Below, in pieces: positions 1 to 38,933 of a stretch of 55,998 nt of DNA. The notes under the pieces were generated by a model, which saw nothing but the letters and a program-made list of their open reading frames with translations, had not been told where the DNA came from and ran no database searches. The position numbers and the translations under genes were made by a program. The DNA comes from Perkinsus olseni (lineage: Eukaryota), in NCBI GenBank assembly GCA_013115125.1, contig JABANN010000181.1:1-55998 (forward strand), given 5' to 3'. The first letter of the stretch is position 1. Every line of letters begins with the position of its first letter.

Positions 1-2302
1 AGATCACTTAAGCCTAGCAGTAGACAATATCACAATACATTGCGTGGCGAGCGACAGCCGACACGACAACAGTATCCGAGGAGAGTCTTCCCAGTGAATA
101 AGAGCAACAAGCGAACCGCGATAATAATAGTCACTAGGTTTTCGTTGGCTGAAGATTTGCAAGCTGATGATCACCCCGAGACGTTCAGAGAACGCCTTAG
201 CGCCCAAGTCTGTTGAAGCAACTACTAAGTTTCGCGTTGAGTTGTATGACTCAACGATTATAAGTTGAAGGCGATGCAGAGTTACACTCCAGTATAGAAG
301 TGGGAGGACGACATGACAGTCAACTGCTGCCACATAAGGTTCCACATACTCTCACATGTGCATCTACCCATGCCTCCTAGTTCCCAGTTCGGAGTCTACA
401 TGAAGATGATAGATCCCCCTTGGAAGGAGAGGCTAACTCTCAGAGTGATTAATCACGGGATACGCCCGCTCATAACGATGAATGATTCACGGTTATGAGC
501 TGGTTCTCCCTGCGTGGCTCCCCCAAATCGTTGTGGATACGCGATCGTCATCATCCCCCAAGCTGCTGCCAGTTGTGTGGCGTGTTTTGGATGAGACAAG
601 CCGCGTCTCGTCCAAACGCGGGTCGCGAGAGCCCAATGGACGAATGGAAGCCGCTGTATGCGGGGAAGATTGCAGAAGCGCCACCGGCGGCATCAATGAT
701 GCCGCATCATCCACTCTTCCTCGTGAATACATCCACCGGCAGTACTATCAGAACGCCCGACTGCTATCCGATCCCATCAGATTGTCGCGTCAATGCATAC
801 GCAACCGTATGGGTGAGGATACGAGGCCTGCACTGAGGGGGTGATTCACTCACTGATATCATCAGCGAGTGAAAACTCTTTACGAAAGAGACGCCGCATA
901 TTCCACGACTCGTGGCCCACGGTAACACGCGTATCTTAGACTCCCTCCCGCGCGTGTGTCCCAACTGTTAGTCGGGAACTCTACCCTCCGACGATTTCCC
1001 CTCCAATAAAACCCTGGCTCGTTCTTCTCTACGCCTGAGATCTGTCTAATAAGTAGACTTTGATGTCTTGCGGCAAGACTCTCGCCGAACTTCTTCAGCC
1101 GAAGCCCAATTGGCGCAGAGGTGGCAGCGCCTGATATCTACCGGATCACCAGGGATCGATCCCGACAGTCAGCTATGTGGGAGTGGGGTGCCACAACCGC
1201 CGAGCTAGGACGAGTCAATTCCTGAGTCGCACTTCTTCATCGTAGGCCAGCACAAATTGTACCATTCTTCAGGCGCCAAGTGAACCGTAATTCTTCGGCG
1301 AATAGGCCAAGACAATATGCGACAGTGGCTCTACGGATCGGAAGTTACCACTTCGCTCAGATAACCATTGTGGTTTATACCATCAGCTCAACTGGCAGCT
1401 TGGCATAAACCGGGCGTGATATACATTAGAAACTACGAAGACGGAGTACTGCTTGTTGCTATGCTGTGAATAGGGTGTTGGGATGGACCAACTTCGCGTC
1501 GTGAACATAAGTCTGCACTAATCTAGGAATGGACTGAGCTTTCCCATCTCATACACCGGAAGGGGAGAATCCTTCCAGTCACGACCTCGAGACCGCGCGA
1601 TGAAACGCATGTCTCCACTTGCTTCGGCATGTAACTCATCAACAATAAAAAAAGCCAGTGAGTTTCCATGTGTGTTATTCGGGTTGTGGGTTTTACACAC
1701 CAGGAGAGCGCGACCAATCTGACGACAAGTCACGGATCTCTAGTACATTCGTCGGGACGTTACCATGATGAGGTAAATGCCAGAGTTTTTTATCGACGGT
1801 CGAACGGGGACGAAAGGGACGGGATGTGTGTGCTAGCGACACTGGGTAGAGCACTCCAGGATGATGCAGTTTCTCGTGATACTTAACATGGCCGAGTTGT
1901 AAAATTCTAGTACCGTGGTATTTTGTTCTCGCCAGAAGAAAGACGGCTCTGCGAGTCGCGTGAAGTCGCCCTTCCGCCTTTCAGTTTGTACAAATGTTTA
2001 TTCGGTAAACGATTTGACTGGCTCTGCAGCCTCAGTATTTGAGCCACCTGCAGCTCTTTTGGCACAGTGGTACAAGGACCCCGGGTTTTTCAACACGCTT
2101 TCCATTCAAGAACTTTGAATCAAAGTAGTTATCCCTTCATTCAACCAGCGTATCGGTGTCGATTGTTGGGTCGTTGGTCCGGTAACAAAGTCTCTTGGGC
2201 CAAGTGTGATCAGAACCTATTTCTTTAGTGCTACGCTGAGTTGTTCCATGTTGCGAGCCATAAAGGATAATCCATTCAGGCAACCGCCCTAAAGGAAATT
2301 CC

Positions 2303-2359
2303 CGTCACGCGCGGGTTCGGTGACCCGGAAGAAGGCCACCGGGGTCACACGCGGTGACG
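2303..2359. repeat. GC-rich nested imperfect inverted repeat (hairpin)
   Basis: cgtcacgcg...gtgacccgg aagaaggcca ccggggtcac a cgcggtgacg: inner and outer arms are near reverse complements. Confidence 0.6.
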
Positions 2360-2587
2360 CGATGCCATCACTCCCACCCGTTGCCGCTAAGCTTTCGGAA
2401 GATCATCTGCCATTCAAAAAGCTGGATTCGAAATCCCTGGATTATATATAGGGTGCCGACTTAAAAAGGGCCCACCCCTCATAGATTTTTGGACCGGACG
2501 AGCTAGGAGTTGTAGCTTACACCAATCGAGAACTCTCGAGTCCCGTTCTCAGCCGCATCTCACTCGTGAGTTCTAAGTAATCGATAC

Positions 2588-2698
2588 ATCGAACAGAATG
2601 CCAAAAAATCGCAAAAAATCGTTGGCAAAATCACAGAGGCCATGTTGACGCTGTGAAGTGACTATGATTGACTGCGATTTTTTAGCATTCGGTACGAT
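2588..2698. repeat. ~110 bp element with 26-bp imperfect terminal inverted repeats (MITE-like)
   Basis: gaatgccaaaaaatcgca (2596-2613) vs tgcgattttttagcattc (2673-2690) pair at 17/18. Extending to 2588/2698 gives 23/26. Confidence 0.65.
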
Positions 2699-2908
2699 AT
2701 TTGGAGGGTAAAACTCGCGAGTGAGACGACGCTGGGAACACGATTGTGTAGAGCTTGACGAGAGCTTTCGATCGGTGTGCGTTACAACTCGCAACTCGTT
2801 CGCACGAAAGAATCAAGAGGGGTAGACCCTTTTTAAGTCGGCACCCTGTAACAAGGCACGGGAACGGCAATGGATACAAGCCATATCTTGTTAGGTGTTA
2901 TGCCCTCC

Positions 2909-4309
2909 ATGCGAATCCCATTGGCATGCTCTTTCGCTTCGCTGGTCGGCGCCACCGATCCTCCAAGCAGCACTATCGTATCCATCAACTCTGCTACCGG
3001 TGATGTTGACATCAGTCAGCTGCCTGCAATGCTGACAAAGGCCGGTTACACTCCCGACCCGGAAGTTGCTTCCTTCTTGGACACCGCTGAGATCACCACT
3101 CTTGAATATGTCCACTCGCAGGTGGTTCATACTCCACCCCACACCATCGACAGCGAAGCTCTCTGCAACTTCGTTAAATCGGCCAGCAGCAAGCTATTAT
3201 TGCGATCTGAATGCGCTGCAGATGCCAACGGCGAAGCCTTTGGCGGTCGCGAACAAAGCCCGCCGAAGAAAAAAAGAGCGAATTCGGCCAAGCTCGATAT
3301 GGACCTGCACGTTAACGACCCCGATGCCGTCTACCAGAAGCATCTCAAGTGGATGAACATGGGCAAGGTTTGGCGACTTGCTTTTCCTCATGTCAAACGT
3401 AAGGTCGCGGTGGCCGTCATAGACTCCGGTATCAACTGGAACGATCCTGATTTCGCCCCCTTGAAAGGAAGAGTCAAGAAAAAGAGCGGCAGCTACTTAG
3501 ACGGTGGCTGGAACTTCATCACCGATTCATCAATCATGACGTTCGTGGACTCTCACGGCACGAACGTGTGCAAAATCCTCGCTGCGAAGGGTAACAACTC
3601 GGTTGGTATAGCTGGAGTTGCTCCCAATGTAACATTGGTGCCACTACAAATATTGGACGAAAACGGCAAAGGGCCTCTGTCACGGTTCTTGGCAGCCCTC
3701 CACATGGCTATCGATCTGGAGGTGGATATCGTCTCAATGTCCCTAGGATACTATTTATCGGGTGCCCAAGCACGCCTTATGCAGAGAGGACTTCGCGCTG
3801 CACAGGAGCGTGGTATAGCACTCGTGTCCGCTATCGGATATGCCTCTGAGCTGCGTGAGGACGATTATCCTTGTCGTTACGGTGGGCCACTTGCTTTATG
3901 CGTCGCCTACATGCAAGATGACAAGACCCGTAATGTGCTGCACACCAACTCGGGCTGGGGCAGAAGAGTTGATGTCGCAGCTTATGGTACGAATATCTTC
4001 ACTGGCCGCGATGAGAACGGAGAGTTACGGTACTTCAACGGTTCGTCAGCCGCCACTCCGATCGTCACCGCCCTTTTCGCTATGCTACTATCAATGGATA
4101 TCGACCCAATGGTGGCGAAGCGGCTGATTTTGAATAACGTAGACCCTGTCGAGTGTGAGATGCCCTTCCTAATGCCGCAAACGATACGAGGTGGCGCCAT
4201 CAATGCTCTTCGGACTGTGCAGCGCGCCATCCATCTGCTCCCTCCACACGGTCTTCATCGCAATGATGGCTCTGTGCTCAGTGCCCTCGATTCTCGAGTT
4301 CTTCATTGA
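2909..4309 (+). CDS. Subtilisin-like serine protease (S8) precursor, copy 1, intronless
   Basis: Motifs VAVIDSG (Asp), HGTNV (His), GVAPNVTL, VDVAAYG and GSSAATP (Ser). ORF is open from 2870; the start MRIPLACSF at 2909 was chosen by alignment with copy 2. Confidence 0.93.
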   Translation: MRIPLACSFASLVGATDPPSSTIVSINSATGDVDISQLPAMLTKAGYTPDPEVASFLDTAEITTLEYVHSQVVHTPPHTIDSEALCNFVKSASSKLLLRSECAADANGEAFGGREQSPPKKKRANSAKLDMDLHVNDPDAVYQKHLKWMNMGKVWRLAFPHVKRKVAVAVIDSGINWNDPDFAPLKGRVKKKSGSYLDGGWNFITDSSIMTFVDSHGTNVCKILAAKGNNSVGIAGVAPNVTLVPLQILDENGKGPLSRFLAALHMAIDLEVDIVSMSLGYYLSGAQARLMQRGLRAAQERGIALVSAIGYASELREDDYPCRYGGPLALCVAYMQDDKTRNVLHTNSGWGRRVDVAAYGTNIFTGRDENGELRYFNGSSAATPIVTALFAMLLSMDIDPMVAKRLILNNVDPVECEMPFLMPQTIRGGAINALRTVQRAIHLLPPHGLHRNDGSVLSALDSRVLH

Positions 4310-5862
4310 TTCCTGTACTTGTGGAGAGCTAGGAGTGCCGGATTGGAAAGTCTACAGTCAGGACCAGGCTTCACCTTTCTCCTTAGCCTCTGAAAGAAGC
4401 GTGTTCTTACGACTCATCGTTTGATATCATTGTCTTCTCTGCGCACTCACCGCGGACTTTTTAATACATGAGCCAAATCGCTAAGAGGAATTTTACCCTT
4501 TTCGCTTTTACTATTTGCATAAGATCAGGACCGCTGCTTTCCGACTTCGACAAGTTCCGCACACAAATCTTGCGTTGATTCGTGCTGTTCAACCTGGGAC
4601 GAGAAAAAAAACTGACGGTTGGACCGCCTAATGACTCGTGGGTTCCCGAGAAACTCGCGAGACAGTTGCGGTCATTACTTGATGCTGTGCGCGTATGCAA
4701 AGCGAAGCGATCGATTATGCGCGCAGCGATCGAATACAAAATGCATTATACTGGCGAAAGTGGTCGAATGGAAATACTTTAACCCGGACTCCAACTGCGG
4801 AACAGTGCCGATGCTGTCGCGTAGGGAAATGGAAGTCTCACTGTAACGCAGGACGCCGTTAACATCCTCAGCCAACGCTACAATGCGGACGATAATGATG
4901 GTGTTCCATTATGATAAACCTATCACCATAAACATCAACGTTTTTGCTATCTTGCGTGGGAGAGAATATCCGACCGGAACCCGTGAATCCGCAAGCCTCC
5001 AAGCGGTCTAATCTACTCAAAAGCTCCCATACTTCGATCCCAACTAACTCACTTTGAACCTGGAAAATGGGGCTCAGAAAACGACAAGAATGTTGCTCAA
5101 ACCTCCCACTATGAGGTTTAATGAGCTTATCGCCTCATCGTTGACGACGACACGTACAGTAGGCTAGCAGTCTACTAAGCAGCAGACCAAATTTGAGTGA
5201 ACTGGCCTCCGAAAACTTTTGAACCGATGAATGTTGGTAGCTCTACGCTCCCCGACCTTTTGCACAGCCGAACAGCGCCTAGGATGTGAGCGAGGCTTCC
5301 AGGATGAGCATAGTTCGTCGTAACTCTACAACTCCTAGCGTTACGCACTCTGACATGCCGAGTCCCGCCTTGGAAGGGTGGATCCCCTCATATTGAAGTT
5401 GACTCCGCGCGCAACAGTGCAAAGGCGAAAATAAAGATTGCCAGCCGGACTTTCTCGCCAGCGAACAAGATATTCAACGAAGATCGCAAACCGGTAGGGA
5501 TGGGACCACGCGAGGAAGCAACGACGAAGAAATTCGATACCTTGCTCTGGTTGTGAGCTGCCACGCTCGAAACTTCGGCCCTTCACAGGCGAGAAAGTCC
5601 TTTTTCCGTCGAGCCGAGAGTGAAGGAGCGCGAGCAGCGAGATAGATAACCATCTCTAAGATATGAGAATCTCTGAAAGTGATCTGATATGTAGGATAGC
5701 AGCGACGTACAGAAGGGTTGAAAATGAAGTAATGATCGGGAGGGACGTGGCGAGGTGAAGGTCTCCGGGCGAGGTGCCGAAGAGCTGTTGGGCCGACATT
5801 TTGGGCCCTGCTTCAGCCAAGAACCAAGAAAGGCTCGAGCACTACGCAGACTTGCGCAGAAA

Positions 5863-7200
5863 TCAGTCACCCAGACCAAAGCCATCATCACTACGAAGCT
5901 CAGACGAGCTCAATGGTAGCATACTGATAGCGTGCTGAACAGTGCTCAGCGCATTGATGGCCCCACCCCTTATGAATTGGTTATTATTTTTGGATGTCAC
6001 CTGATCTACGTTAGCTAGCAGGAGCGGCTTCACCAAGTCCGGATCGACACCCATTGAGAGTAGGATAGCAACAAGGCCGCCAACAATCGGTGCCGAGGCT
6101 GATGTGCCATCGAAATACCTCAACTTACCGTTCTTGTCACGACCACTAAAGACTCGTGTACCGTAAGCTGCGACATCCACCCCCTCGCCCCAGTTGGACT
6201 TTGGATGTAGAACGTTCTGACTCCTGTCGTTGTCCAGGTTAGCGACGCAGATGCCAAGTGGGCCACCACACCAACAAGGGTATTTGTCGGAAGCTTTCTC
6301 ACCACGGTTACCGGCTGAGGACACGAACAAGATGCCATTCAACTGCGCAGAACGGAGAGCGCTTGAAACAAGGTGCTGTTGCGCCGTGGTCAACCTGCTG
6401 AAGTAGTATCCGATAGCCATCGTGATGACGTCAACCCCCAAATCAATGGCCATATTGATAGCTTCCGAGAGGAGCGATAATTTGGTGTATTTTGGGTGAG
6501 CGAATATCTGCAGTGGCACCAATATGACATTGGGAGCAACTCCAGCCATACCGACCAAGTTGTTACCCTTAGCCGCGAGGATTTTGGAGACCTCAGTACC
6601 ATGGGGTTCTTTGGTCGTCTGGTCGGTCGACTGGGTAAAAAAGTTCCAGCCTCCTGCCAAGGAGCCACCACTTTTCTTGGCCAACGTTCCCTTCAACGGA
6701 GCGAAATCGGGGTCTGTCCAGTCGACACCGGTATCGATAACGGCCGCCTTGACCGTCCGAGTGACATGAGGACGGGCGAGTTTCCAAACTTGGCTCATGT
6801 CCATCCACCCAAGGTGCTTCTGGTACTTGGCATCGGGATCGTTCACGTCTAGTTCGCCATCAAGTTCGAAGATATCACCGCTAGCATCTTCAGCGCAGTC
6901 AGACTGCAATGACAGCTTGCTGCTGGCCGATGTCACGAAACTGCAGAGAGCTTCGCTGCCGATGGTGTGAGGTGGAGTCTGAACCACCTGGGAGTGGACA
7001 TATTCAAGAGTGGTGATCTCAGCGGTGTCCAAGAAGGAGGCAACTTCCGGGTCGAAAGGGTAACCGGCGTTTCTCATCATTTTTGGCAGCTGACGAACGT
7101 CAACATCACCGGTGTCAGACGTGATGGAAACGATAGTGCTCTCCAGAGAAGCGGTGGCGCCCGCGAGGGAGGCGTGGAGGGTTATGGATGGGATGCGCAT
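5863..7200 (-). CDS. Subtilisin-like serine protease (S8) precursor, copy 2, intronless
   Basis: Motifs AAVIDTG, HGTEV, SSAGN (oxyanion Asn) and GTSASAP. Collinear with copy 1. Start MRIPSITL at 7200. Confidence 0.95.
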   Translation of the reverse strand: MRIPSITLHASLAGATASLESTIVSITSDTGDVDVRQLPKMMRNAGYPFDPEVASFLDTAEITTLEYVHSQVVQTPPHTIGSEALCSFVTSASSKLSLQSDCAEDASGDIFELDGELDVNDPDAKYQKHLGWMDMSQVWKLARPHVTRTVKAAVIDTGVDWTDPDFAPLKGTLAKKSGGSLAGGWNFFTQSTDQTTKEPHGTEVSKILAAKGNNLVGMAGVAPNVILVPLQIFAHPKYTKLSLLSEAINMAIDLGVDVITMAIGYYFSRLTTAQQHLVSSALRSAQLNGILFVSSAGNRGEKASDKYPCWCGGPLGICVANLDNDRSQNVLHPKSNWGEGVDVAAYGTRVFSGRDKNGKLRYFDGTSASAPIVGGLVAILLSMGVDPDLVKPLLLANVDQVTSKNNNQFIRGGAINALSTVQHAISMLPLSSSELRSDDGFGLGD

Positions 7201-10046
7201 TGGAGGGAAAGTCCTGGAATTCCCGAAAACGTGTACAACTCTCAGCCATCCACTGCGAGGCTGTACGGATGCCCACATCCGCAGCCAGAACGGTTGTTAG
7301 ACACTCCACCATACTTTTCTGGAACCCTGGTTTCATGGGTCGCCACCTCGTTGCGTTCAGTATATCACAAAATATAATGACCGTAGGTGAGACAGGACAC
7401 GAACTGGCGGAAGAGGAAAAAAGAGAGCAATCAGCCTGGTCTGGTCACCATCGTGTGATCGAGAAATCGCTTGGCGTGACAAACTGTACGCTATTATCCG
7501 CACCGTCTGCATTTCGACTCAGGCGGATGGTGGGCCTCATCGGTCTAGTTCCTGGCTGTGGAATCCATAATACCACGCGCGTTCATTGTATGGAGCCGCT
7601 ATCGTGTCGCTTACGTGCCTCCGCCTTACAATCACGGGGCCATCGCTACTAGGCGCCGCCAGTTGGTCACCTTATCTTTCTAATAGCCGATGATTTCATC
7701 TCTGGAGCAGGAGGGACACCGGAGCAGCTCCATCCCGGTGCTCAACCCAGCGGAGGCGGTTTGTTCCCACCGCGTTTATCGGGCCCATCACTGGTGGCTT
7801 GTCACAAAGCCGCTGTCAACTTGACAGTGTCCAGATCCCCGTGGCAGTGCATTGGATTATGCATTGGAGTCTCACCCACGTTGGGCAAAACACTTGTGAA
7901 AACGCATAACGCATAACGTGAAATGGGTGATGAGAGGTCGAAACGCGAAAAACGGTCAGGTGTTAAGCATACCGTCATCTGTAGCGCGTTGATCTCACTT
8001 CGGGTAACGCAGTTACCACGTTACGCCACGTTATCTCATTAGCGTTTCTCGCCTTATTGGTAGCAAATTGCAACTAGCAATCCTCACACAGGAGGATTAG
8101 CGTGGGTGAAATTCACATGATGAAGGAAATTCATCATTCATAAATTCACCCAACACATGATGCAGCAGATGAGCTAACTCGGAGCGCGCCATGATGTGCT
8201 TCAATTGCGCTAGAGCTATTCAATTGCAACCATAAGCAACTGAAGAAGGGCGGTAATCGCGGATGTAAGCTGAAGTCAGCCCTCGGCACCGTGGATGTGG
8301 AGATCGACACCAGATACCGATGTCTTGGTCCCTCGTGGACGCAGACCGAGGCGTTCTCTGGTACCCCACTGAACAGTAGTGGGAGGAACCAAGCATGATT
8401 TGGTGTGGCTCTGACGATGCGATCGAGGAAATGATTTGAATCGGTCTCACTGCAGAAGCAGACTTGACAGTGTGCGTTATGACGCGAAGTGTTATTGCAA
8501 CACAACATATGACGTTTTTCGCGAAACAACATCTCGTAGAACTGTTCAAGACGAGGTGGAACTCCATTGAATGCACCAAAGGAAGTGAATCATGCTGCAT
8601 GATTCATGCAGTTGTTGTTGCTGTTGTTGTTGAATCATGTAAAGTCACTGACGTCATTGATGATGCACCAGTAAGAGCCATCTCTATTATCTCCCCAGTA
8701 AACTCCGACAGATTATCGTTGGCATCACTACGATGGCGCCGGTGCATACATCAGAGCAAGTCGATTGGTGTGACGAACGCTGTCGGTCGTGGCAGAGATC
8801 GAGAACATCCTGATGGTCGTTAATAGCGACTCGTTATGACATTTGAGGTCACTTGGATTCTGGTCATACGGCCGAGCCCGAACGGCACTATGTCACATTC
8901 ACGATTCGAATGCATCACTGGACTCCACACATAAGCTGTTGAATCTGCTTCCGCTTGCTTCCCTACCAAGGATTGATGTTCAGTACCGTCCACGCGCTGA
9001 AGCCCGAAGGCTTCAGAGACCTCAGCCGCGTCTCGGCGCGGTATGCCCAGAGCCACTTGCGGTGTGAAGCGTTCAGATCACGTCCACGGCGGAGAGTGGA
9101 CGGCTGGGTTGCGTCCGGGCCACTCGAACCTAGTGCTTAGCTACCATGGAGACTGTCGAGGGCATATGTATTTGCACGACGACCTGCACTCAGACTCTGA
9201 GCCTCAGAGCGAATATGCTGACAGGGTGGCGAGCGGGCCGGCAATTTTCCTCCAACCCGTCACGGAGCCGGGAAGATACAACCCACGCCCTCCTCAGCTG
9301 TGCCATGACCGTCGCGAACTCTCAGTCGCCGGAAACAGAAGCCAGTCACATCCAACTTGAATGCAGGCAAGCATGGAGTAGGACGCCGTTACTTCATACT
9401 TGGTGACTTACTGTTTTACTGGTTTCACATTCAAAGTAAGAATGTGGAGCCGACCACTGGTTTCATCAATTTTTCGCGATCATTTGGTAGCCCACTCTCC
9501 CTACATCTTTACTTGACTAACGCAACATCACCGTCCAATATAGCAGAGCAACTCCAATGGCCGAACAATGCTGTTGATGCTACCATAATCCCGTAGCAGA
9601 ATTACAACTCTCAATGATACAGAGGACCCCGTGCACATTCTCAGATATGACTACAACGCTCGATGATGATCATAATGTTGTCTCGCCATCGTCATCACCC
9701 TGACTCTTGAGCAGCAAACATAATATCAAACCCAACGATGAGACCGGGGCATTGATGGCGTTCAGGGTTATGCCACTACAGAAAAGATGGGCGACTCATC
9801 TCTGTGTCAACGCTCGATGAGCAACAAGGGAAGCATCAAGTAGGAGCCCTCGGCACCCCGAAGTCTCCGCCGGCCACAGCGGGAGAGACGGGCTAACTTC
9901 ATAATACTCAGCCCCTTCTGCCGCAACCACCACCATAATCAATCAAAACTAGTAATGTTAAAGAGTGTCATCGGTAACGACGATGATGACCACCAATCTA
10001 CTGGACTTCAGCACGGAAGAACTTAACAACAGAGGGGTGCTTAAGA

Positions 10047-26567: not shown

Positions 26568-26857
26568 TGACCGTGATTCACCATCATGGTCTGCTATTAT
26601 ATATTATCTAAGGAGGGTTTAGTTCAGTCAGGGTTGGTGGCAGACTCCCGTTTGGCGAGTGGATAATTTGGCGAAGGTGTGGTATGAAGCACACACTAAC
26701 TTGCGAGAGCATTTCACGGTGCATTGAAGGTTAGACATTACTCTTCGTCATTCCTGCGGTATCGCTGTGAATGCTTTGATTGATCGGCCCTCCACAACGT
26801 CACGATGTAACTTGTCTGTAATATCGCCAACAACACATCAAGAGCCCATCAGAAACA

Positions 26858-29242
26858 TCAAGATGGGTGACGATCATGATCGGGAACATCCCCATCCGTA
26901 GCGCTTTCATCAGCCACAGTCTCACTATATGACTTAGCCTCTTTCTTCCCACTCGCCAAGTGAGCGAATTGATCGAGTATGACGTCGGTGCGCTTTTCCG
27001 TGTCACCAGGCCACATATACTCGCTGACGCACAGGACCCGGTAGCCTTTGGTGCGAAGCGCCTGCAGCTCAGCGTATTTCGCAGCTGTTACGGTGTGTCG
27101 ACGCTTTTTCATCGTTTGTGAGGCGAGAGCGTCCGAGTAGTGGTACCTGAAGGTAGATGATGCTGATCACCGTGAGCCCCTTCCCTACCAGGTCTTATGG
27201 CCGTTCGGAAGGGCCTCCAGAATGACCCAGTCGTCGGGGCCGAGGGCAGGCGCTTTGGGAACCTCCACCTCTACATCGTAATCTCCATCCGCCATTGCTG
27301 CCCGTCTCTGCGCGAAAGCAGCGACTTGCAGAGGAGCTATCACAGCTAACGATACGACAGGTCCCGCGGTCACCGCGGCCTCCCTCACTTCAACCCCTGT
27401 CCAGTTCTGCCGTATGTGGTCCAGCAGGGCCATCTCGAAGGCGCACCTCGGCCGGTTGGCCTGTACCGGTGGGGCTGATGCTCCCATGGATTTCCCCACA
27501 TCAGTGAGGGCGAAGAGGCCCAAGGCTGACGCCACTTCCGGGTCCTTTCTTGCCGCCCGTCGGGCCTGGGCGAGCGCGGGCTGCAACGTGTCGGCCGTCA
27601 TGGTGTCAGGCTGGCGACCGGGAGGTTGCAGTGCAAACAGCGCGGCCGAATACAGGAGTGACGCTGCCGCTGAGGACTGAGTGGAGCTCCAGTCGGCATT
27701 CTGAGCGGCTATGTAGACCCCTAGGTGATCTGCAACGGTTGGTAGAGACAGACGGGCCAAAGCTGAGGCGAGCATCGACAGGATCGGTGGCGGCAAATCT
27801 GGCAGGGGGTAGAGGGTGCTGTTGCAAACATGAACCCAATGGGTGTCGCGGATGCCCAGCCTCGAGTACACGCTGAGCGCGTGAATGACCACCTCAGGAG
27901 GCGGCACTCCTTCGTTTTTGGCCTTGAACTTGAGCAGGCAGGTGAGGAGACACTCTCGGGCTTCCCAGGTTGGCGAGTCCTCCAGGACCACGCCGGCCAG
28001 ATGACAGACTTGCTCGAACGTCAGGAACCTCGCGGAGTCTCCGCGAATCAGCCGATAGAAAATCGTTGACTCAACCTTTCCGTGCTCATCGAAGCTTGGA
28101 TTCTGACGTAGGAGCCTGAGAATCTCCAGGCACGACGCCGGTGTGAAGTGGCGGATCCTATACAGTATCTCAGGCAGGAGCTTCCTCGTCTCAATGACAG
28201 GCAACTGTGCCGTATACCGCATGAACCTGACGATGTCGCACGGTTTCATCTTGGCCGTCAACTCCTCTATGCGGCCATTGAGGGCGGGTATCAGACTGGG
28301 TGGTACCAACCCATTGGCCTCGAGCTCCTTGGGCGACTGCCGATAGACATTGACCACAGCCAGCATGACGTGAGCTACATCCATGTTGTTGAAGACTCTC
28401 TCCTTATTAATATTCTCCACCACCTGTTTGAAGAGCATTTTCAAAACCGGGCGGTGCGTTATCGTCAGCGGTTTGGTCGTTTCTTGCTGCTCCTCACCGT
28501 CATACTCCTCGAAGGGCTCGTCTTCCTCCCCTTCATCATCACCATCTCGATCCTCATCCTCGGTGGCCTCTTCCAGTCCTGCACTCCCGAGAGGACTAAA
28601 GCCGTGTAGCAGCAGCGACAGCGTATGCCCGTCCGTCAGCTTGGGGATCCTCGCTGTTATCTCACTGGCAACGCTGCTCCTTGCAGCCTCCATCTGTGTA
28701 GCACTCACGCTCAGTCGTGCCAATGAATGAAGGAAAAGGGCGATATCGTTGGGAGATGCCGCATGCCTGTCCGTCCCAGAGATCCGCCGGAGCCCCATGG
28801 TGAGAAGCTCGTCAACCCAGCGCTTGTCACCGCCGAGGCGCATCTTGGCACCGGCGTTGAGGGCCATCACTACGTCTCGGAAGGACATCTTGTAGTTCAC
28901 GTTGTTGCCCTTCCGGACTACTTCATCCAGCAGGAAGCGAGCCAGGGCTGGGGAGCGGCTCTTCCCCAGGGCAGTGGCGTCGAGAATAAGGCAGAGGTCG
29001 GTGACGAGGAGCTCGCTGCGGAGGGCTGCGGCTCGGAACATGTATGCCTCCCAAAGGTCCTTCTTCCAGATATGCTCCCGAGCTACTTTCTGCATACTCC
29101 GCCGAAGCTCGACGGGAGCCATCTTGTAAACTGCCCCGACAGGGGGAGCCCCTCGGAGCATCAGCCGCTTGTTTGCAGCGAGGGCGGCCTTGGGGTTCTT
29201 TCGCGCCTTGCCGATCATCTTGGGAACGACCGAGGCCATCAT
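26858..29242 (-). CDS. Helical-repeat protein with C-terminal RAP domain (organellar RNA-binding), one intron near 27150-27188
   Basis: Repeats such as SPNDIALFLHSLARL and PPPILSMLASALARL. The tail WVILEAL...YHY...LQALRTKGYRVLCVSEYMW fits the RAP pattern. Confidence 0.72.
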
Positions 29243-29358
29243 GGCGAGAAATAACTGGCAGAGAGCATCGATCTCTGTGAGGGAGCCCACAAAACGCATT
29301 TGGGCGCCGTTAAAAATTTGATCAAAATTCATGGTAAAAATGACGACAGACGACACCT

Positions 29359-32300
29359 CTATTTGGCCGAGTCGAAGTTGAGAGACGCTAGTAAATCATC
29401 AGAAGCGAAGCTGGGTAGCCTGAGGAAGGTCCGAAGATTCTCACCAGCGAAAGACAGGCCAACTTACGTGACATTGAGCTTCGGGTTGGCCTTCATGGCC
29501 TCAGTGATACCCACTCGAGCGTTGGCATTCTCGCTCCAGCACCTGCACAGGGCGGGGTCTCCTACTGAGATGTAATGATCGCCCACCTGCGGGCCATCCC
29601 GTTGGTGACGTCCCATTGGAGCATCGCTCGCGCTCGACGTTCAGCGTCGGCACTGCCATCCAGGACGAGACCAAAACCACCGTTAATAACCTACAGGAGC
29701 GTGGACGGATCCTAGAGAGCACGCAGGAGAGGCTACTTCGCCCCAGCCAACTCCACCACCGTTGTGCAGAGCAACCCAAGTGGCCCCTCGGCACGCGTTG
29801 CCAGCAAAGGTGTGGACGGCCATGTCCGCGGTGAAACGACTACCATCGATGATGTTGGCCGTTTCGCGATATGGAGAGTCCGTCCCTAAGGCAAGATATC
29901 TCCCGAAGGCCGACGATGTCCTACACCTTACCCGACACATCATGGTGGTCCCGACTGATCGCCACGGGGCCGTGCAGCCTGCCAGAGGCAACAGCGTTGT
30001 TCATGGCCACCGCTATGGCCATTCTTCCGGGGCAGTCAGCGTAGAGGATACGGGCTTGGGAGCCTACTACCATCGTGAGGCACCGCTACGGGCAGCCGAG
30101 GAGACCTCACCGACGACTAGCTTGTTGGGCCCGGCAGTTCTGATCCAAGTGAGATTGTCTCGGTAGTGGCTGATGCTCTCCATCGGTACGTCATCGCCTT
30201 TCATCAAACGCTCGAGCTCCTCTGCGGCGATGCGGTCGGTGGTCTCAAGATCGGCAGGGTTGTTGGAGAGGCAAACCCAACGGTAAGGGCCGAAACCGAG
30301 AGAGAAGACGTCACCCATGATGTCCTCGAAGTACGACGGGTATCTGGACGCTCCATGGCATACTGGTATTTTTCATCTTATACGGGATTTAAATGCAACC
30401 AAGTCACTAACGATGATACAATGGTGGAAATCTTAATGAGTATCAATAGATAGTGATAGGAAGGAAATGGAGAAGTTGTGATACAGATACAAAGCATTGA
30501 CAGAGTACAGGGCAGATGAACAGAGCCAGCCATCGCAGAGCGGACCATCGACCCACCTGAACTCTCCGGTCGATTTATCCTTCACAACATCAGCTCCGGC
30601 TCGACTGGCTTGTAGTAGGAATGCATTACCGTAGTCCCAGAAGCGCATGCCTCGAGCTGCCAGCTTGTTAACGGCCGCTACGTGACGAACTAGCGACTCC
30701 TCCACCAGGGATTTGAACTGAGCGGGGTCCTTGGCGAGGATCTCGTTACCCTGACGAAGAAGCGCAAATAGACGAACAGACGAACGCTTTCCGATTTCTA
30801 CTTTGTCATAGGATACGCCGGCTGGGTAGTAGCCGCCACCAAAGGGGTTGTGAAGGCTAGTCTGGTCGGAGCCCAAGTCGGGAGTCAGACCAGCGTCCAC
30901 CAGGGCCTCCCACAGGTCCACCACATTGCCAAGGTAACCGAGAGAGACGGGGCGTTGGGCGGCGAGCGCCTCCTTGGCCAACTCGATCACTTCCGAGGCG
31001 TCCCTTCGGTACTCGTCCAGCCACCCTTGATTGACACTGGCAGACGTTAAGACATCATCGAGGCCTCGAGGCCCTTCATCCTCACCGCTTCATTAGTGCC
31101 GCCTCCGATACCTCTGCCGTTATTGAGACTGCCCGGCAGATCTTGGCAGCCTTCGGTTGAGCGCCACTCATGCCTCCCAGGCCTGCTGTTACGAACAGCT
31201 TCCCTGAGTAATGAAGGGTCCGCAACCATAACACGCGCTCTTACTACCCTTGAGGTCCTCGACGCTAAGATAGAGCCTGCCAGCGTTGAACAAAGTGATG
31301 GCCGTACCGTGGACGATGCCCTGACTGCCGATGTAGCAGTAGCTGCCAGCGGTCATTTGGCCGAACTGGGTAACACCCATAGCGAACCTAAGGAGCTGTG
31401 CTTGGCGGCATTGTTGGTGAGTGAGAGAGCTGACATCTTGTTGTAGTCCTCAACACTGGAGTAGTTAGGGATGACCATACCGTTGCTGATGATCACCCTG
31501 GGAGCATCGGCATGGCTGGGGAAAAGCCCCATGGGGTGGCCCGAGTACCTGAAATACCGTAACTACCGTCGAAATAGAGCAGGGTAGGGCGTTGCTACAT
31601 AGCGAGAGTCTGATCTCCCTCCATGGTCTGCAGGTAGTGCATCGTGAGGTGGTACTGAGCCCAGTTCTGAAATACTGTCCCGTTGCCTCCGTAAGTGACA
31701 AGCTCATGGGGAAACTGCGCGACATCAGCGTCTAGATTGTTCTGAATCATCAGCATTATTGCAGCGGTCTGACGGCACCTGATGCAGTACAAGAACACGG
31801 CACAAACGACAATAAGGGAGTCATCAGCTTCGCCGGGGTTCACTTTGCCGGGTAGTGGTCGATTGGACGGGCGAAAACAGGCTCAACGGGCCGAAAACGA
31901 TACCTAATGGCGGAGCAGCAGAAGCCGGACTTGGAAGGACATCCCTCATCGGCTTCGACCTATCAAGTAGCGCACGAAAAATATTGAAGCCTACATTCTG
32001 CCGCTATCGGTGCTAAGGCAGCGGCGAAGAAGCTTCCACCGCCGGTTGCCTAGGCCGCCTGTACCGGGACTATCAACTCCCCACACTGTCATGCCAGAAT
32101 AAATCCCATACGAGCATCCACTGGTGGGTATTACATATAAATGTGGCCGTATGCGTCAAGCTCCCGAGCAAACTCCGTGGCCAGTTCGGCATGGCATCTC
32201 TCAGGGAAGTAACGCAAAGCGTTCTTAACAGCTCGACGACACTCAGCCGGAGTGAGGGCGTGGGGCCTACGAGGGGCGTGAGGGACCTGCCCGTCATCAC

Positions 32301-32455
32301 GTGAGCTCTATCGCGAGGAGGACTACTCCTACGGATGGATCTCTCTGAAAATTGAACTTGGGAGGCAGAGGTTCGACTTGAAGACCGGGGAAGTCCAGGG
32401 TCAACTTCGGCTGCTTATCAGCATGAACTGCTGCTGCAGAGGGGTCAAACGGCAT
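29359..32455 (-). CDS. UROC1: Urocanate hydratase (long UROC1-type), multi-exon
   Basis: [117 protein letters not shown]. Confidence 0.97.
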
Positions 32456-32699
32456 TGTGAACGGGAGTCTACTACGCGGGCAGCGGCAAGGACGTCATGG
32501 AAGCGTCGCTCAAGCGAGACGAGGGAGCGGACGAGCTCTACTGTAACCTAAGCATGGGGTGAGGGAGACATTTATAAAAATTTGTGAACCTTTATCCAGG
32601 GAGAAACTTATTGAAGCTCCGCTTGAATAACTTATCCCTTACGATGATCGCCACCTCGGGCTGATCGGCAGACTGAAAGCTGCGCTGCGGGGAGAGCGG

Positions 32700-35600
32700 T
32701 CAGAGGTTTCGGCAGAGAGTTAAAACTTGTCCCCTCGACATCATGTCGATAGGGGAGACCTCATCGATCTGGCTAGCCTCCCTTTGTTTCAAATAGGGCT
32801 CCACAACTTCCCATACCGCACCAGACCTAACGTCGTGAACTTCCGAAGATGCCCCGCTCTGGGCAGACTCACCTAATGAGGTCGGTCACTTTGTCAATGT
32901 CAGGCGCCAAGTAGCGATCCTCATCGTAAGGCTCAACGCCGGCTGATCGCACCAAGTCATACACAGCCTCCAAGGGGGCAGTGCTGCGGCAGGGTCTATG
33001 AAATTCCAAGGCCTGCGAGATGAGAATCTTTCGACGCGTATCTTGCCACCTTCGACCTACTTGACAAGCGGCCATGAGCTCGATAGCGATGACAACTTCA
33101 ACATTGGAGATGACCTCAAGGCATTTCCTAGCCGAATACCCTCCCATAGACACATGGTCTTCCTTGGCCGCAGAGGTCGAAAGCGTATCGACGGACGAGG
33201 GGTGGCAGAGCACCTGAGCAAAGATTTCCGCTCTGAACGACGGCGATTGCCCCGAACCTTGTTCTCGCTGGTCAGCGCTGCAGCTGTGCAATGGGCGATC
33301 ATGAAGCCAGAGTTGAGTCCGCCGTTCTGGACCAGAAAAGCTGGTAGGTTGGACAGGGCCGGATTGACCAGCCGCTCCATGCGGCGCTCTGAGATGTTCG
33401 CTAGCTCCTGTATGCCGATCGCCAGGTAGTCCAAGGCCTTGGCTGGGTACCTAAAACGAGGGGTCTGTGGGGAGGAGCAGCAGCACAGAGGGCCTACTCG
33501 CCGTGGAAGTTGCCTCCCGAGATGATGAAGCCACTGGTACCGAGCAGCAATGTCTCCATGAGATGCGTCTAAGAGGAAAAGTGATCGGCGATGGCTCTGG
33601 TGCGGGGGCCTACGTTGAGGGCTGTGTTCTCCTGTTTAAAGTTCTTGAGCAAAGCGCGCATCTTCTGGATCTCCTTGCGGGCGTCATTCAAGTCGGATAT
33701 GTCACTGGCGTCATCAGGGCCGTCCAGTAATGGGAACTACAACAGCATCTAGCACCATGATAAACCTAAGATACTCCTGGCCGACTACACTGTCATCGAA
33801 GCTGGTACTGTTCTCTTGAGAAGGAGGGATGGGGCTGAGAGGCGTTGCACAGACTGGCGTGGTAGCAGCACTACCTGCAACAGCGGCAGAACTCCGGTCA
33901 ACCTTGAACGCAGCTCACCCAGTCTTACCCTTCAAGGTCGAGCTGGCGTCACCAGAATGGCCTCTGCCACGGGTGCCAGCGGGGGCCTTAGCACTACCGG
34001 TCGGATAGAAATCCGCGCCGCCCGTGAAAATCATGGGGTTATCAGTAGCAGAGTTGAGCTCGACGTCCAGCAGGCGCTTAACAAACTCGATGGTTTCAAA
34101 AACAACGCCGTGGACCTGCACACCAGCATAGTCGAGGAGGAGAGGCGAGGCGATCAACCAACTTCGAGTGAGAGTATTGGTCATCAGTTTGCTGACCTGA
34201 GGAACACAGCGCAGAGTGTAGGCATCCTGCACTTTCCCGCTGTAGCGGTGGCTGTCGAAAAGGTCGGAGGGCTTCTCAGGCTCGAGTAGGCCGCGTATCC
34301 TAGAGGCCACCAGGTTCTGGCCGCAGTGTGGCCTCGCCGCGTGGATCTTCGGGTGGAAGGCATTATGAGTACCTACAAGAGCAACTCATTTCTCTTAGAG
34401 CCGAAGACAGTACCGCACCCATGAGGGCTTCCAAAGTAATAGCGCAGGTGACGTCAGCGCATCTCGCCACGTTGATCGACCTCATGACGGCTTCACAGCC
34501 CAAGCTGGAGATCAGCTGTGTTCCGTTGATCAGCGCTAATCCTTCCTTTGGACCCAGCTCCAGTGGCTCGAGTCCGTGTCTGAGAGCGCAGCATGACAGG
34601 AAGGGTAACCACAGAGCTGAAGGGACCTCTGAAGGACCTCTCCTGCGGGCTTGGGGTCGGTCGATTGGGGCTCCCACATGAGCCCTTCCCCCAGTAGGCC
34701 CAGGCACAGGTGGGCGAGCGGGGCTAGGTCACCGGAGGCACCAACGGTACCTGAACCGCGCGTAGCAGATACGTCGGCAACACTAGTGGCGACCGGTCAC
34801 CTTGACAGGGCACCACTGACAGGCAATCCTCGTTGAACGCTGCGAGCATCTTCTCCACGGTTTCAGGTCTAGCTCCCGAATGGCCGCAGGCAATGACGTT
34901 GACACGGAGAGCCAGCAGCATCCTCGTTCTCTCACGGGAGAGAGGGGGTCCAACACCAGCCGCATGCGAACGAATAAGATTAACCTGCAGGAGTGAACCC
35001 GGATACTGCAATCAGAGCGGCTACTGTATATTGTATACTGCGAAATTATATTAAAGAGGTATCATCTCTAGAGATTACTCAGTATTGGCATGATTTGTTC
35101 ATTAAGTATATCAGTATTTATCGTACGTTAGATGCTCTGTGAATATTAGTATATAATGATGAGATCTGAACTACATATTATTAAGGCCCACCTGCAATTG
35201 GGATAGCTGGTCCGGCGCTACGATAACGTCGGAGAACATACCGAAGCCGGTGTTGATGCCGTAGGCCACTTCCTTCTTGTCGAGTATTTGGTCGATCACA
35301 TGACGCCCTCTGTTGACCTTACAACTGTGACGGTACTGAGCAGGACGCTGGTGATCTTTCTCATGGTACTTTGTCCCAGGCTGCCGGGGAGAGGGTGAGC
35401 TCGACGTTGCCCTTAGACAGCTCCATCAGCTTCTCACAGGTCAGGCTATGGCCGTCCAAAACGCATATCTGAGCATCCAACTCACCCGACAGAGCTACGG
35501 CTGGTTCGTAGCGATGGGACTAGGCAAAAGCAGGCGACGAGTTGAAGCAGTTATTCTCTTGCAAATGACCCCGTGTAACCGAGAGAGACGAGCAAATGCG

Positions 35601-35718
35601 GTAGTATGCGTTTAATGAAGAGTAGTACTTATGTCTCACTTACGGTCCTTTCAGGAGCCCGATTCGAAACAACCGCTACGCCATCGCCGCCCCTAGTCGC
35701 TGTGACTGCGTTAGGCAT
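32700..35718 (-). CDS. HAL: Histidine ammonia-lyase (histidase), multi-exon
   Basis: [33 protein letters not shown] (MIO-forming ASG), [53 protein letters not shown]. Confidence 0.97.
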
Positions 35719-35980
35719 GACAGCAGATGACGGAGACGAAACTCTCTTCATCAATGACAGGCTCATGACGAGTTTCGTATCACGCACGAGTCAACAAAAG
35801 ATACGCCCCCATTTAAGATTGATGTTACTAACACTAGACCAAGCATCCAATTTAACCACCACAATGAGATCTATTTAGCTTCATGGCATCACCGCTTCAC
35901 GACAGCCTCCACCGTCGTCGACAGCCACCAAAAACTGACGAGTGAAAACGAGGTCTAAACAATAGCGTTGGGAAGGAGCT

Positions 35981-37817
35981 CTAATTGGTGTAGCGATCAC
36001 AGGCCTTCACCAGCAAGTCTTGAAGGGGCCCGAGCAGTCTCTTGAAGCTCCGTCTGCAAGGCAACGCTGATAGGAACAGCAGCAGGGGCTCCCTCACCTG
36101 TCTAAGGCGAGGAGTTTGGCGTCGGTCTTGGCCCTGACACTGGCCGCTCTAGGCTCCCCACGGAGCAGGGCAAGCTCGCCGAAGTAGTCACCAGAGTCGT
36201 AGCTCATGACCTGAGCTCGAGTGCAGAGCCGACAGAAGGAGATGTTCCTTACAACTTCCTGCTCTCCTCCATCACGCTCCTTCAAGGCTTCACAAGCACC
36301 CTCCTCAATAACGTAGAAGGTGTCACCAGGCTCACCTGAGGAGCTCCCATACCGACACAACTGCACGAAAGGGGAACTCCCTTCCATCACGCAAGACTGC
36401 CAACAGTGGCTTCGGGAGCTCAAAATGACATCACTCGGAATCGAAGGAAGGAAGGAAGGAGAGGATGCGGCCTTACCCTGTGTGACAACCATTTCCCCAG
36501 CGGCAACAGAGACCGGCTTGAGGGCGTCAGCTATCTGACCCCTCTCGTAGGCATCCATGGAGGCCAGCAGCGGCACGGACTTCAAAAACGATTCGTAGCG
36601 CTCACGCTTGTGGGCCGCGGCATCCTGAGGGACAAAGCAACGATCAGGATGGACATCAGCGATGGGAGCATCGGATCCGTGCAGCCTACTACTACCTTGA
36701 CGATGTGATTGAAGGTCTCCCTGTCCAGCCTCAGCAGACGACAGTCAGTCTTGGCCTCGATGGAGGCAGCGCGAGGGCAGTTGTAGAGCAGGGCGAGCTC
36801 ACCGAAGACGTCACCGACCTCGCACACTTTGAGCATCTTCTCTTCCTCATCACCCTGACCAAACCACATGCCAGCGAGGATGCTGGCCATGGCGACTCAC
36901 CGGGAATTTCTTGTAGACCTCGAGCTCGCCGCTCTCTACGACGAATAGGAAGTCCCCATCATCGCCTTGGTTGATGACACGCTCCTTGGCGCTGACAGTC
37001 TCCTACGAGACATACTCGTAGAACTTCAGTTGGTCAAGAACGTAAGCTCACTTCCTTCATGGCGTCAACGACAATAGCAAAGTCGTTGTTTTCCAAGGCA
37101 GCGAAGAGGAAGGACTTAGAGAGCACCTCCTTGATTCTGACAACATCCAGGACAGCCTCCACTCAACAGCTGGCGGCCGTCGAAGCCTACCTAGCCTTCT
37201 GCTCATCCCCCTTGGGGTAGACAGGGGGCGTGAACTCCTTCTTGACGTTCCAGGCACCATAGGCCTCCGCGCTGACCTAAAAAGAGCAAGCTGCCGAGGG
37301 ACAGCTCATCGCTGAGGAGGGGTCCTACCGACGCCCGGGCCTTGCTGCGCTGCGCCTGACTCTGGACGAAGTTGTCGGGAAGCTCGTCAACGTAATCATC
37401 ATCATCCTCGTCTTCGGAGTCTACCACGGAGTCGTTATCCTGAGCAAGGCGGCGTTCCTGATCACGAGTTCGGGGATTTACGGTACGCCATCAGTGGTCC
37501 CCTGAGCGTCGCCGCCGCCGTGCTTGAGCATCTCACGGAGACTGTTGATTTCCTTCTTGAGCTGATCGTTCTCGGCCTGTAGGGAGTCCGCGGGGGCCTC
37601 CTTAGAGCCGCTTGACTTATTCTCGCGGAGGTACCTGGGAACAGAGCTCACCGGAAAAGGAGGCAGGGGAGGTCGGGCACTTGATCATGAATTCAACAGG
37701 GTCGTTGGGCATCTCAGTGAGGCACTCGGTGACCATGTCCTCTAGGAGCGGGTTGAGCTTCTGGATGATGTAGGTCTTCTTGGCCTCGGGGATCCGTAGG
37801 GAGTCGAGAGAGCTCAT
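35981..37817 (-). CDS. PKAR: cAMP-dependent protein kinase regulatory subunit, multi-exon
   Basis: Two cNMP phosphate-binding cassettes, [15 protein letters not shown] and [15 protein letters not shown]. Inhibitor site RASVSAEAYG and an N-terminal docking-like helix pair. Confidence 0.95.
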
Positions 37818-38101
37818 CAAAAAAACTAGTCGACTGCGAGGAAGGGTTGATAGGCTCGATCGAGGAGCCAATATTGAAACCCAGAATTGATCCTGAAGCC
37901 TCACTTTACGTGCAAAAAATCACTTTCAGGATTGACCCAGAGTGCCAGAATGCCTCTTTTGGACGGGGGCACCGTCGGGGGGCGTAGCAAGACTAGAAGT
38001 AGCGTAACACGACGCCGAACGAACAAGGGAAGAGATAAGCGGAAAAAGGTAGCCGACTCCACGGCCACAGTCAGACCTAACCGCAGGGAAAGTGACAGGG
38101 A

Positions 38102-38933
38102 ATGGTAGAGCAGGAGGCCTCCACGACTGCGGCTCCCCACGGCAAGCGGCTTCACACGAGGTACGAGCGTCTAAGCTCCTCCGACCGCACGAAGACCCGT
38201 CCCTTCACTTCCAGGATCACAGAGGCCTGCTGCGGCTGACTTAGGTCAGTTCAGTTATGGTCCTGAGGAAAGGTGCATGCTGAAGGGGGGAGAGACCCGT
38301 GGTGACACACCGGCCTTTGGAGAAGAAGAAAGACGCAGAGCGAGACAATCTTGAGCCGACGCGACAACGCATAATCGTTCTTCGATTAAGTGGGCTAAAA
38401 CGTCGTAAGGTATTTTTTCCGAAATAATCGCTGTTAAAGGCGACGCTCTTTCATGACATCCACGACAAAGAATTGCCAGCTGCGAAGGGTAGAGGAAGAA
38501 CTCACAAGAGCCGGGTAAGGCTAAGTTATGGAAGATTGACTAAGGGTGGTGCTCCACCCGCCCGACCCATTTTGAATCTTGCCATGATCGACCTCGGATC
38601 TTCTCGATTCGTCGGTGCTCAGGTGGAATGTGAGCTCTACTGGAGCATTGAAGTTCGGATGCCACTTCCTCCTCTATGCTGGTGATAAGAACGACGTCCA
38701 TTCTCAATATGGAGTTGTCGTCAGCGACGCAGAGGACCCCATAGACTACCTCGAGGTGGCCACATGGGAGGCAGTCGAGAAGCTCCAGCGTCTCCATTGG
38801 TCAGGTCATAGGCCTTACACGCCTCTGCCATTCAGTTGGGAAGGATCTCTTAGTCGCGGAAGTGGGCACGGTGGGAGATGGCCGCTCGATTCGGTGGACC
38901 TCTCTGTCACGGTGGAAGCCTCATATCGCGTGA
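38102..38933 (+). CDS. tRNA-splicing endonuclease catalytic subunit (Sen2/Sen34 type), multi-exon; start uncertain
   Basis: Spliced reading ELTRAG|WNVSSTGALKFGCHFLLYAGDKNDVHSQY...DYLE|VIGLTRLCHSVGKDLLVA...LSRWKP retains the Tyr/His/Lys catalytic positions. Confidence 0.85.

Follow-up and report, generated by a model that had tools for sequence, protein, structure and literature searches.

Bacterial hut operons hold hutH and hutU, often hutI, hutG or hutF, and the repressor HutC. Among eukaryotes, fungi have catabolic clusters assembled from native genes through rearrangement, such as the DAL allantoin cluster of yeast and the GAL, proline and quinate clusters, and the usual working definition of a eukaryotic metabolic gene cluster is three or more genes of one pathway. 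To our knowledge, native catabolic gene clusters, familiar in fungi, have scarcely been described in protists, and none for histidine utilisation. Here we describe a 55,998-bp contig of Perkinsus olseni (the whole stretch is called the window below) in which a gene for histidine ammonia-lyase (HAL) is followed, in pathway order and on the same minus strand, by a gene for urocanate hydratase (urocanase), with a spacer of 244 nt between them. The pair is a small gene-order feature; it is not the result of a recent operon transfer and, on the RNA contigs and gene phylogenies, most probably not a bacterial-type operon. The reading that we prefer, with slightly more confidence than doubt, is that two ordinary, vertically inherited eukaryotic genes stand in tandem and yield separate mRNAs, their linkage perhaps being kept for co-regulation. 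Both genes had already been deposited, the urocanase under its name and the HAL named by UniRef. At the level of listings and abstracts, we found no paper reporting that hut genes are linked in a eukaryote, nor one naming Perkinsus with HAL or urocanase.

The HAL gene (35718 to 32700, minus strand) has its ATG at 35718 and a TGA stop at 32702-32700, and comprises 15 exons encoding 674 amino acids, separated by 14 introns of 44-207 nt. The urocanase gene (32455 to 29359, minus strand) has its ATG at 32455-32453 and a stop codon ending at 29359; it likewise comprises 15 exons, encoding 689 amino acids, and its 14 introns measure 44-231 nt. All introns of both genes are GT..AG. The gene models were read from the window with deposited Perkinsus proteins as guides, among them the HAL proteins of P. 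olseni and P. marinus, which served as tblastn queries. Pfam searches of minus-strand stop-to-stop open reading frames (ORFs) at 29683-35519 gave matches in 11 of the 13 pieces, with Lyase_aromatic (PF00221) on six of the seven HAL pieces and the urocanase N, Rossmann or C domains (PF17391, PF01175, PF17392) on five of the six urocanase pieces, these three domains standing in order on the exon ORFs. The HAL model is 98.4% identical over 674 residues to that of a P. olseni allele (P0250); the urocanase exons are 100% identical over 669 residues to P0001, and the urocanase model is 96.7% identical to the allele P0241. The 60-nt exon 3 of the urocanase gene (31844-31903, minus strand) is left out of the 669-residue model deposited for this contig; it was found by tblastn with P0002 and P0241, and its upstream border agrees with an RNA joint, 31900 to 32132. 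The adjacency, shared strand, pathway order and intron richness given in the preliminary description, which had been made from the letters alone, are thus upheld in full by Pfam and the guided gene models, and its spacing of about 245 bp comes to 244 nt on measurement (32699-32456).

Both proteins pass the NCBIfam equivalog cut-offs for their families. P0250 scores 652.3 bits on hutH (TIGR01225, cut-off 539.15 bits), the runner-up family being tyrosine 2,3-aminomutase with 361.6 bits, below the cut-off of that model, and P0241 scores 417.2 bits on hutU (TIGR01228, cut-off 375 bits) and far under the cut-offs of the thiourocanate hydratase models. The best matches in the PDB are a histidine ammonia-lyase for HAL (6v6h, 606.7 bits) and a urocanate hydratase for urocanase (6uek, 884.9 bits), both of which we take to be Trypanosoma cruzi enzymes, the organism not being stated by the search. 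The Ala-Ser-Gly triad of HAL, which forms the 4-methylideneimidazole-5-one (MIO) cofactor, the electrophile of this enzyme, is encoded in exon 5 (34627-34750, minus strand), where the translation has the motif from residue 166 of the 674-residue model, and it is invariant in our HAL alignment (A1). Judged by family membership, HAL would convert histidine to urocanate, and urocanate hydratase would convert urocanate to 4-imidazolone-5-propionate. The Perkinsus HAL also carries an insertion of protist type (33498-33928, minus strand), about 110 residues long and lying between NSATDNPM and SGGNFHGE. It has a conserved DL..A..EI...R motif, and shorter versions occur in the HALs of oomycetes and other protists; of the 11 rows of the alignment, 10 have the insertion, the exception being sheep HAL. 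Solved HAL structures among the PDB matches do not span the insertion, the query being matched in two stretches, the first of which ends at about residue 350.

Whole or part of the stretch is contained in 20 sequencing runs, most of which hold about half of the sampled words, as expected of spliced RNA. RNA contigs of two runs from different studies (X4 and X1) were mapped on 26,800-38,200; X4 is on record as RNA and X1 was taken for RNA by guess, though its contigs are without introns. The contigs of both runs are spliced, with 15 listed joints, all CT..AC on the plus strand. Introns matching listed joints number 13 of 14 in HAL and, among the joints listed, beyond which there are 19 further RNA joints, 2 of 14 in urocanase (31904-32134 and 32287-32332). 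An X1 contig at 31874-32161 runs unspliced through the 231-nt urocanase intron, with the spliced form alongside, which may be due to intron retention or to DNA in the library. Upstream of the HAL start there is a second in-frame ATG at 35766. The HAL contigs measure 2184 and 2197 nt, and these lengths, together with the depth of the last bin, would place the assembled 5′ end near 35,745-35,753, so that the ATG at 35718 appears the likelier start and the one at 35766 probably lies outside the mRNA; the same lengths favour a first intron of 175 nt (35643-35469).

The spacer between the two genes (32456-32699, minus strand) includes the 3′ untranslated region of HAL, with a TATAAA at 32576-32571. 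The HAL contigs end at 32563 in X4 and 32569 in X1, 2-8 nt past the TATAAA and 131-137 nt past the stop codon, and the urocanase contig starts at 32473, 18 nt ahead of its ATG. No bicistronic RNA was seen among the assembled contigs of X4 and X1, no listed contig covering 32474-32562. Because the contigs end and start apart and no listed piece bridges this interval, the locus most simply gives two separate mature mRNAs, 90-96 nt apart. The word depth of the HAL and urocanase contigs is several-fold above that of both flanking genes in both runs; the runs were chosen by this very stretch, hence such depth is a poor measure of expression and was not used for ranking. A scan of the spacer for bacterial promoters and terminators, which is unsuited to a eukaryote, returned 0 sites.

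The phylogenetic position of both proteins points to vertical inheritance. A search with a HAL exon listed 120 proteins, no named row of which is prokaryotic; after Perkinsus, the matches listed are oomycetes (the closest named), protists of MMETSP and EukProt, nematodes and other animals. Trees were built by short IQ-TREE searches, with a site-mixture model for HAL, and support is given as Shimodaira-Hasegawa-like approximate likelihood ratio test (SH-aLRT) values. In the HAL tree (69 rows) the three Perkinsus rows fall within a eukaryotic side of 49 rows (animals, oomycetes, other protists and unlabelled metagenome rows), set off from 20 prokaryote rows with support of 100, and their nearest sisters are two unlabelled proteins (support 99). 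When the tree was repeated with 42 added metagenome HALs (40-53% identity) and without four long-branch paralogues, a eukaryotic side of 52 rows was recovered, again with SH-aLRT 100. The insertion that Perkinsus HAL has in common with HALs of oomycetes and other protists is found in none of the prokaryotic matches.

For urocanase, a full-length search brought up matches of 60-66% identity in amoebozoans, Palpitomonas, a lancelet, corals and others, among which Bacteroidota were interspersed at 62-63%; long-form urocanases of prokaryotes reach 64-66% identity to the Perkinsus protein. Since the eukaryotic and prokaryotic identities overlap, a tree was needed. Perkinsus was placed (66 rows) within a clade of 33 rows, SH-aLRT 98, which contains all 22 labelled eukaryotes and none of the 30 prokaryotes. 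A repeat with 70 rows gave a clade of 35 rows, SH-aLRT 97, with all labelled eukaryotes except one protein (P0397, see below) and again none of the 30 prokaryotes.

Among prokaryotic urocanase loci, hutH directly follows hutU in 15 of 59, all of them from marine Thermoplasmatota of Marine Group II-type (L006, L009, L010, L014, L015, L018, L023, L024, L027-L029, L033, L037, L039 and L051). Of the prokaryotic rows, it is the long-form urocanase of these Thermoplasmatota that lies closest to the eukaryotic clade, with a support of only 82.

Within P. olseni the pair was found in five of five assemblies, with consecutive protein accessions and contigs of equal size for both genes (55,998; 107,016; 29,676; 16,358 and 368,195 bp). 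The linkage is thus fixed within the species, and it looks young, of species or genus level. Outside P. olseni, a record size common to the HAL and urocanase match lists occurs only in the starfish Patiria miniata; its HAL-like P0238 and urocanase-like P0338 lie on one record of 46,651,055 bp, which means the same chromosome, not adjacency.

In order to see whether hut genes adjoin in other protists, metagenome contigs were scanned with an alignment of protist-type HAL, and 80 loci were kept. A urocanase match is also present in 27 of them, most of which are of bacterial type (40-49% identity, without the insertion), and two contigs (L067 and L068) are informative as eukaryotic HAL contigs. 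The 9,106-bp L068 comes from a protist and carries a urocanase gene at 12-2780 (minus strand) and a HAL gene at 2893-4835 (plus strand), head-to-head, with 112 bp between the ATGs. The HAL gene encodes 600 amino acids, has the protist insertion and contains one 140-nt GT..AG intron; the urocanase gene has at least three GT..AG introns. The HAL groups with an MMETSP transcript (68%), and the urocanase falls in the eukaryotic clade. The last visible urocanase exon reads from the C-terminal domain, without a stop, into the N-terminus of an imidazolonepropionase (HutI), the HutI part matching positions 2-55 of TIGR01224 (E 1.4e-12, best among the amidohydrolase models), and ends at a GT on the contig edge. 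A search with the junction piece in a database of 1.84 billion representatives found the same urocanase-HutI junction in P0372 (hutI E 7e-58) and P0411 (hutI E 1.8e-47); ESM Atlas scores for the fusion fragment P0372 are at most 0.86 and serve as leads only. The first three steps of the pathway are therefore linked in at least one protist distant from Perkinsus, and a pairing by pure chance in P. olseni becomes less likely on that account, though the sample is two contigs.

Two further fusion proteins, P0397 (EukProt, chrysophyte label, 1026 residues) and P0399 (938 residues), have a complete HutI ahead of urocanase, the reverse of the order in L068. Their urocanase parts form long branches among prokaryotes, and the two proteins were left out of the eukaryotic evidence; they may represent contamination, transfer or merged neighbouring genes. 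The introns at 732-1023 (urocanase) and 4066-4205 (HAL) of L068 were seen, by eye only, to have GC-rich stretches in common, in opposite orientations, resembling introner elements.

Taken as a tandem kept for co-regulation, the P. olseni pair would have arisen when rearrangement of native genes placed HAL and urocanase in tandem, as in the fungal catabolic clusters; co-location would help the two genes to be regulated together, by way of a common chromatin neighbourhood or of read-through, and each gene would yield its own spliced, polyadenylated mRNA. The joining of hut genes in at least one other, unrelated protist inclines us slightly to a linkage kept by such an advantage over one that is purely accidental; that the linkage is under selection is plausible and unproven. 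The preliminary description had seen here a eukaryotic metabolic mini-cluster. Part of this stands, in that non-homologous genes of one pathway adjoin, co-location is still a live explanation and HAL and urocanase are also linked in L068; in P. marinus, as annotated, the two genes are apart.

Several observations weigh against our reading, the first of which concerns the sister species. In P. marinus ATCC 50983 the one annotated urocanase (XP_002785732.1, on a scaffold of 207,324 bp) and the one annotated HAL (XP_002787093.1, 483,855 bp) lie on separate scaffolds, their accessions 1,361 apart. This arrangement lends no support to selection for linkage within the genus Perkinsus. The P. marinus HAL model (P0124, 570 residues) ends about 110 residues early on its 3′ side and diverges from P. 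olseni in mid-exon, in the exon matching 33213-33061 of the window, which could be due to a premature stop, a sequence error or an assembly break; as the model is short at that very side, a fault of assembly or sequence is possible behind the split scaffolds. The comparison of synteny proposed in the preliminary description accordingly has a divided outcome, the pair being kept in all P. olseni assemblies and separated in the one other species examined. Furthermore, the spacing of HAL and urocanase is no tighter than that to unrelated neighbours (262 and 26 nt), and the linked genes of the pathway number only two. The window gave no match for hutI, for a formimino-processing gene, for a regulator or for a transporter, hutI having been sought by sequence and the rest by Pfam on ORFs of at least 90 residues. 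The eukaryotic contig L067 (8,330 bp) has a HAL without an adjoining urocanase; the genes on either side of this HAL encode a GCD14 tRNA methyltransferase and an L1-domain protein, and a TELO2-like gene lies farther along. Assembled contigs neither prove mRNA ends nor exclude a rare bicistronic precursor. Finally, the SH-aLRT values come from short searches only, and the prokaryotes compared for HAL are a narrow sample (15 marine Thermoplasmatota of Marine Group II-type, 5 bacterial rows and 42 unlabelled metagenome rows).

The neighbouring genes deserve attention in this context. HAL and urocanase belong to a run of four minus-strand genes, which opens with a regulatory subunit of cAMP-dependent protein kinase (PKA-R; 35981-37817, PF00027, tblastn with P0251, stop at 35983-35981), 262 nt ahead of the HAL ATG at 35718, and closes with an open frame of 736 codons (27185-29332, minus strand, no Pfam family), whose first ATG, at 29332, follows the urocanase stop after 26 nt. 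As these unrelated neighbours are equally close and on the same strand, tight spacing and common strand characterise the region rather than the hut pair in particular. It is because the spacers are so short that deposited models are fused, two of them (1002 and 1095 residues) joining PKA-R to HAL and one (P0244, 1341 residues) joining urocanase to the downstream frame. A tblastn search of the window with eight prokaryotic HutI proteins, three of which were checked as hutI equivalogs, found no hutI (best E 0.06; short exons could escape), and neither an amidohydrolase nor an FTCD domain was recognised by Pfam when 181 of the window's 204 ORFs of at least 90 residues were scanned, the 23 omitted ORFs lying within HAL and urocanase. 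The absence of hutI and of formiminoglutamate-processing genes from the window, already remarked in the preliminary description, is thereby confirmed by tblastn for HutI and by Pfam on ORFs. Other genes of the window, by Pfam, are two subtilases, an FHA/RING gene, a kinesin, Mre11, a protein kinase, a tRNA-intron endonuclease and a PP2C. The subtilase (Peptidase_S8) frames at 2852-4306 (plus strand) and 5866-7296 (minus strand), of about 480 codons each and about 1.5 kb apart, are probably a pair of paralogues.

In order of likelihood we place co-location for regulation first, neutral accident second and a polycistron resolved by spliced leaders third. If the two genes are chance neighbours, a neutral rearrangement in a gene-dense region of P. 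olseni brought them together with no effect on expression and no selection, and we regard this as a serious competitor of somewhat lower probability. It would account for the different scaffolds of the annotated P. marinus orthologues, for spacers to unrelated neighbours that are as short or shorter, for the linkage of just two genes without hutI and for the solitary HAL of L067; moreover, as very many windows were inspected, some accidental pairs of consecutive enzymes would be expected. Two named genes, however, should adjoin by accident at a rate of about 2/N, that is 1-2 in 10,000 if the genome holds, as we presume, 10-20 thousand genes. Neutral accident also sits poorly with L068, one of the two informative contigs, where the same genes adjoin in an unrelated organism, in another orientation and with a urocanase-HutI fusion, and with the depth of the pair, several-fold above its flanks in both runs, poor as this measure is in runs chosen by this stretch.

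A bolder interpretation, which we hold tentatively and consider rather improbable as a whole, is that hut genes have been clustered repeatedly by selection in protists, that the gap of 90-96 nt between the P. olseni mRNAs reflects processing of a common precursor through polyadenylation and spliced-leader trans-splicing, and that the L068 pair, in an unrelated marine protist, shares a control region of 112 bp. The benefit would then lie in co-regulation or in the passing on of the labile 4-imidazolone-5-propionate, and hut would be the first catabolic pathway known to cluster convergently in bacteria and several eukaryotic lineages.

It is also conceivable, and in our judgement unlikely, that the run or the pair is an operon-like unit of nematode or kinetoplastid type, transcribed as one precursor from which the HAL message would be released by polyadenylation and the urocanase message by spliced-leader trans-splicing. 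Perkinsus does have spliced-leader trans-splicing (PMC2868825), just 90-96 nt separate the HAL contig ends (32563 and 32569) from the urocanase start at 32473, and four genes run in the same direction with spacers of 26-262 nt. The urocanase contig begins with AG at 32473, preceded by unlike sequence, and this may be taken as a hint of trans-splicing, short of evidence; a graph assembler would break at this AG if leader-bearing and unspliced forms coexisted. On the other side, 32474-32562 is spanned by no listed contig of X4 or X1, and for position 32473 the RNA contigs of these runs gave no report of loose leader letters. The flanking genes of the run are, moreover, much lower in contig depth than the pair (here a poor measure), and such a unit would be a property of the four-gene run, not of the hut pair. 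Of the co-transcription and trans-splicing suggested in the preliminary description there remains the AG as a hint, since the RNA contigs are separate in two runs.

The old intronised operon transfer of the preliminary description, in which an ancestor of Perkinsus would have gained a bacterial hutH-hutU pair and introns later, is very improbable and, as an event specific to Perkinsus, is rejected on the protein phylogenies: many bacterial hut operons have this gene order, there are bacterial-type metagenome loci with a urocanase match at most about 200 nt after HAL, and long-form prokaryotic urocanases approach the Perkinsus protein, but such high identity is equally true of all eukaryotic urocanases, no named row among the 120 listed HAL matches is prokaryotic, both proteins nest in eukaryotic clades with animals, amoebozoans, oomycetes and other protists, and HAL carries the protist-type insertion that the prokaryotic matches lack.

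If the linkage of the tandem pair is selected, the locus offers a small, tractable case for how gene order serves regulation. Perkinsus has several assets for such a study, namely culture, transfection, trans-splicing and gene density, the organism being both culturable and transfectable (PMC2868825). Together with L068, the pair hints at a wider protist pattern of adjacency and fusion of hut genes. If the linkage is due to chance the finding is an ordinary one, yet it corrects several fused or incomplete deposited gene models.

Compared with bacterial hut operons, the P. olseni locus has the same enzymes for steps 1 and 2, adjacent, on one strand and with HAL first. It differs in that the genes are of eukaryotic type, with 14 spliceosomal introns each, and appear in separate mRNA contigs, and in that no hutI, hutG or regulator was found alongside and no sign of a shared promoter was seen. 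With the fungal catabolic clusters it has in common that non-homologous genes of one pathway, vertical in origin, were brought together; in contrast to these, it consists of two genes without a transporter or pathway regulator, and the order is not found in the P. marinus annotation. Measured against eukaryotic metabolic clusters in general, the locus shows adjacency of non-homologous pathway genes, falls short of three genes and, going by the P. marinus annotation, shows no linkage beyond one species.

The spliced-leader operons of nematodes and kinetoplastids are similar in having genes on the same strand in an organism with trans-splicing, and the gap of 90-96 nt between the mRNAs is also like theirs, whereas in Perkinsus neither a precursor nor a leader on the urocanase mRNA was seen in the RNA contigs. 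In P. marinus the spliced leader is present on more than 14% of expressed sequence tags, the share of trans-spliced mRNAs being unknown (PMC2868825), and the Perkinsus leader ends in AG (PMC9399869). For the dinoflagellates, the sister group, evidence for polycistronic mRNAs is described as lacking (PMC7789003), and the portion of the literature that we consulted contained no report of polycistronic transcription in Perkinsus.

Like Trypanosoma cruzi, Perkinsus is a parasitic protist with both HAL and urocanase. We know of no report of HAL-urocanase linkage in T. cruzi. The histidine-to-glutamate pathway of that species has been described (PMC12203737). In L068, as in P. olseni, a eukaryote-type HAL with the insertion adjoins a urocanase of the eukaryotic clade in an intron-bearing genome; the L068 genes differ in being divergent, with 112 bp between the start codons, in the fusion of steps 2 and 3, and in belonging to another lineage.

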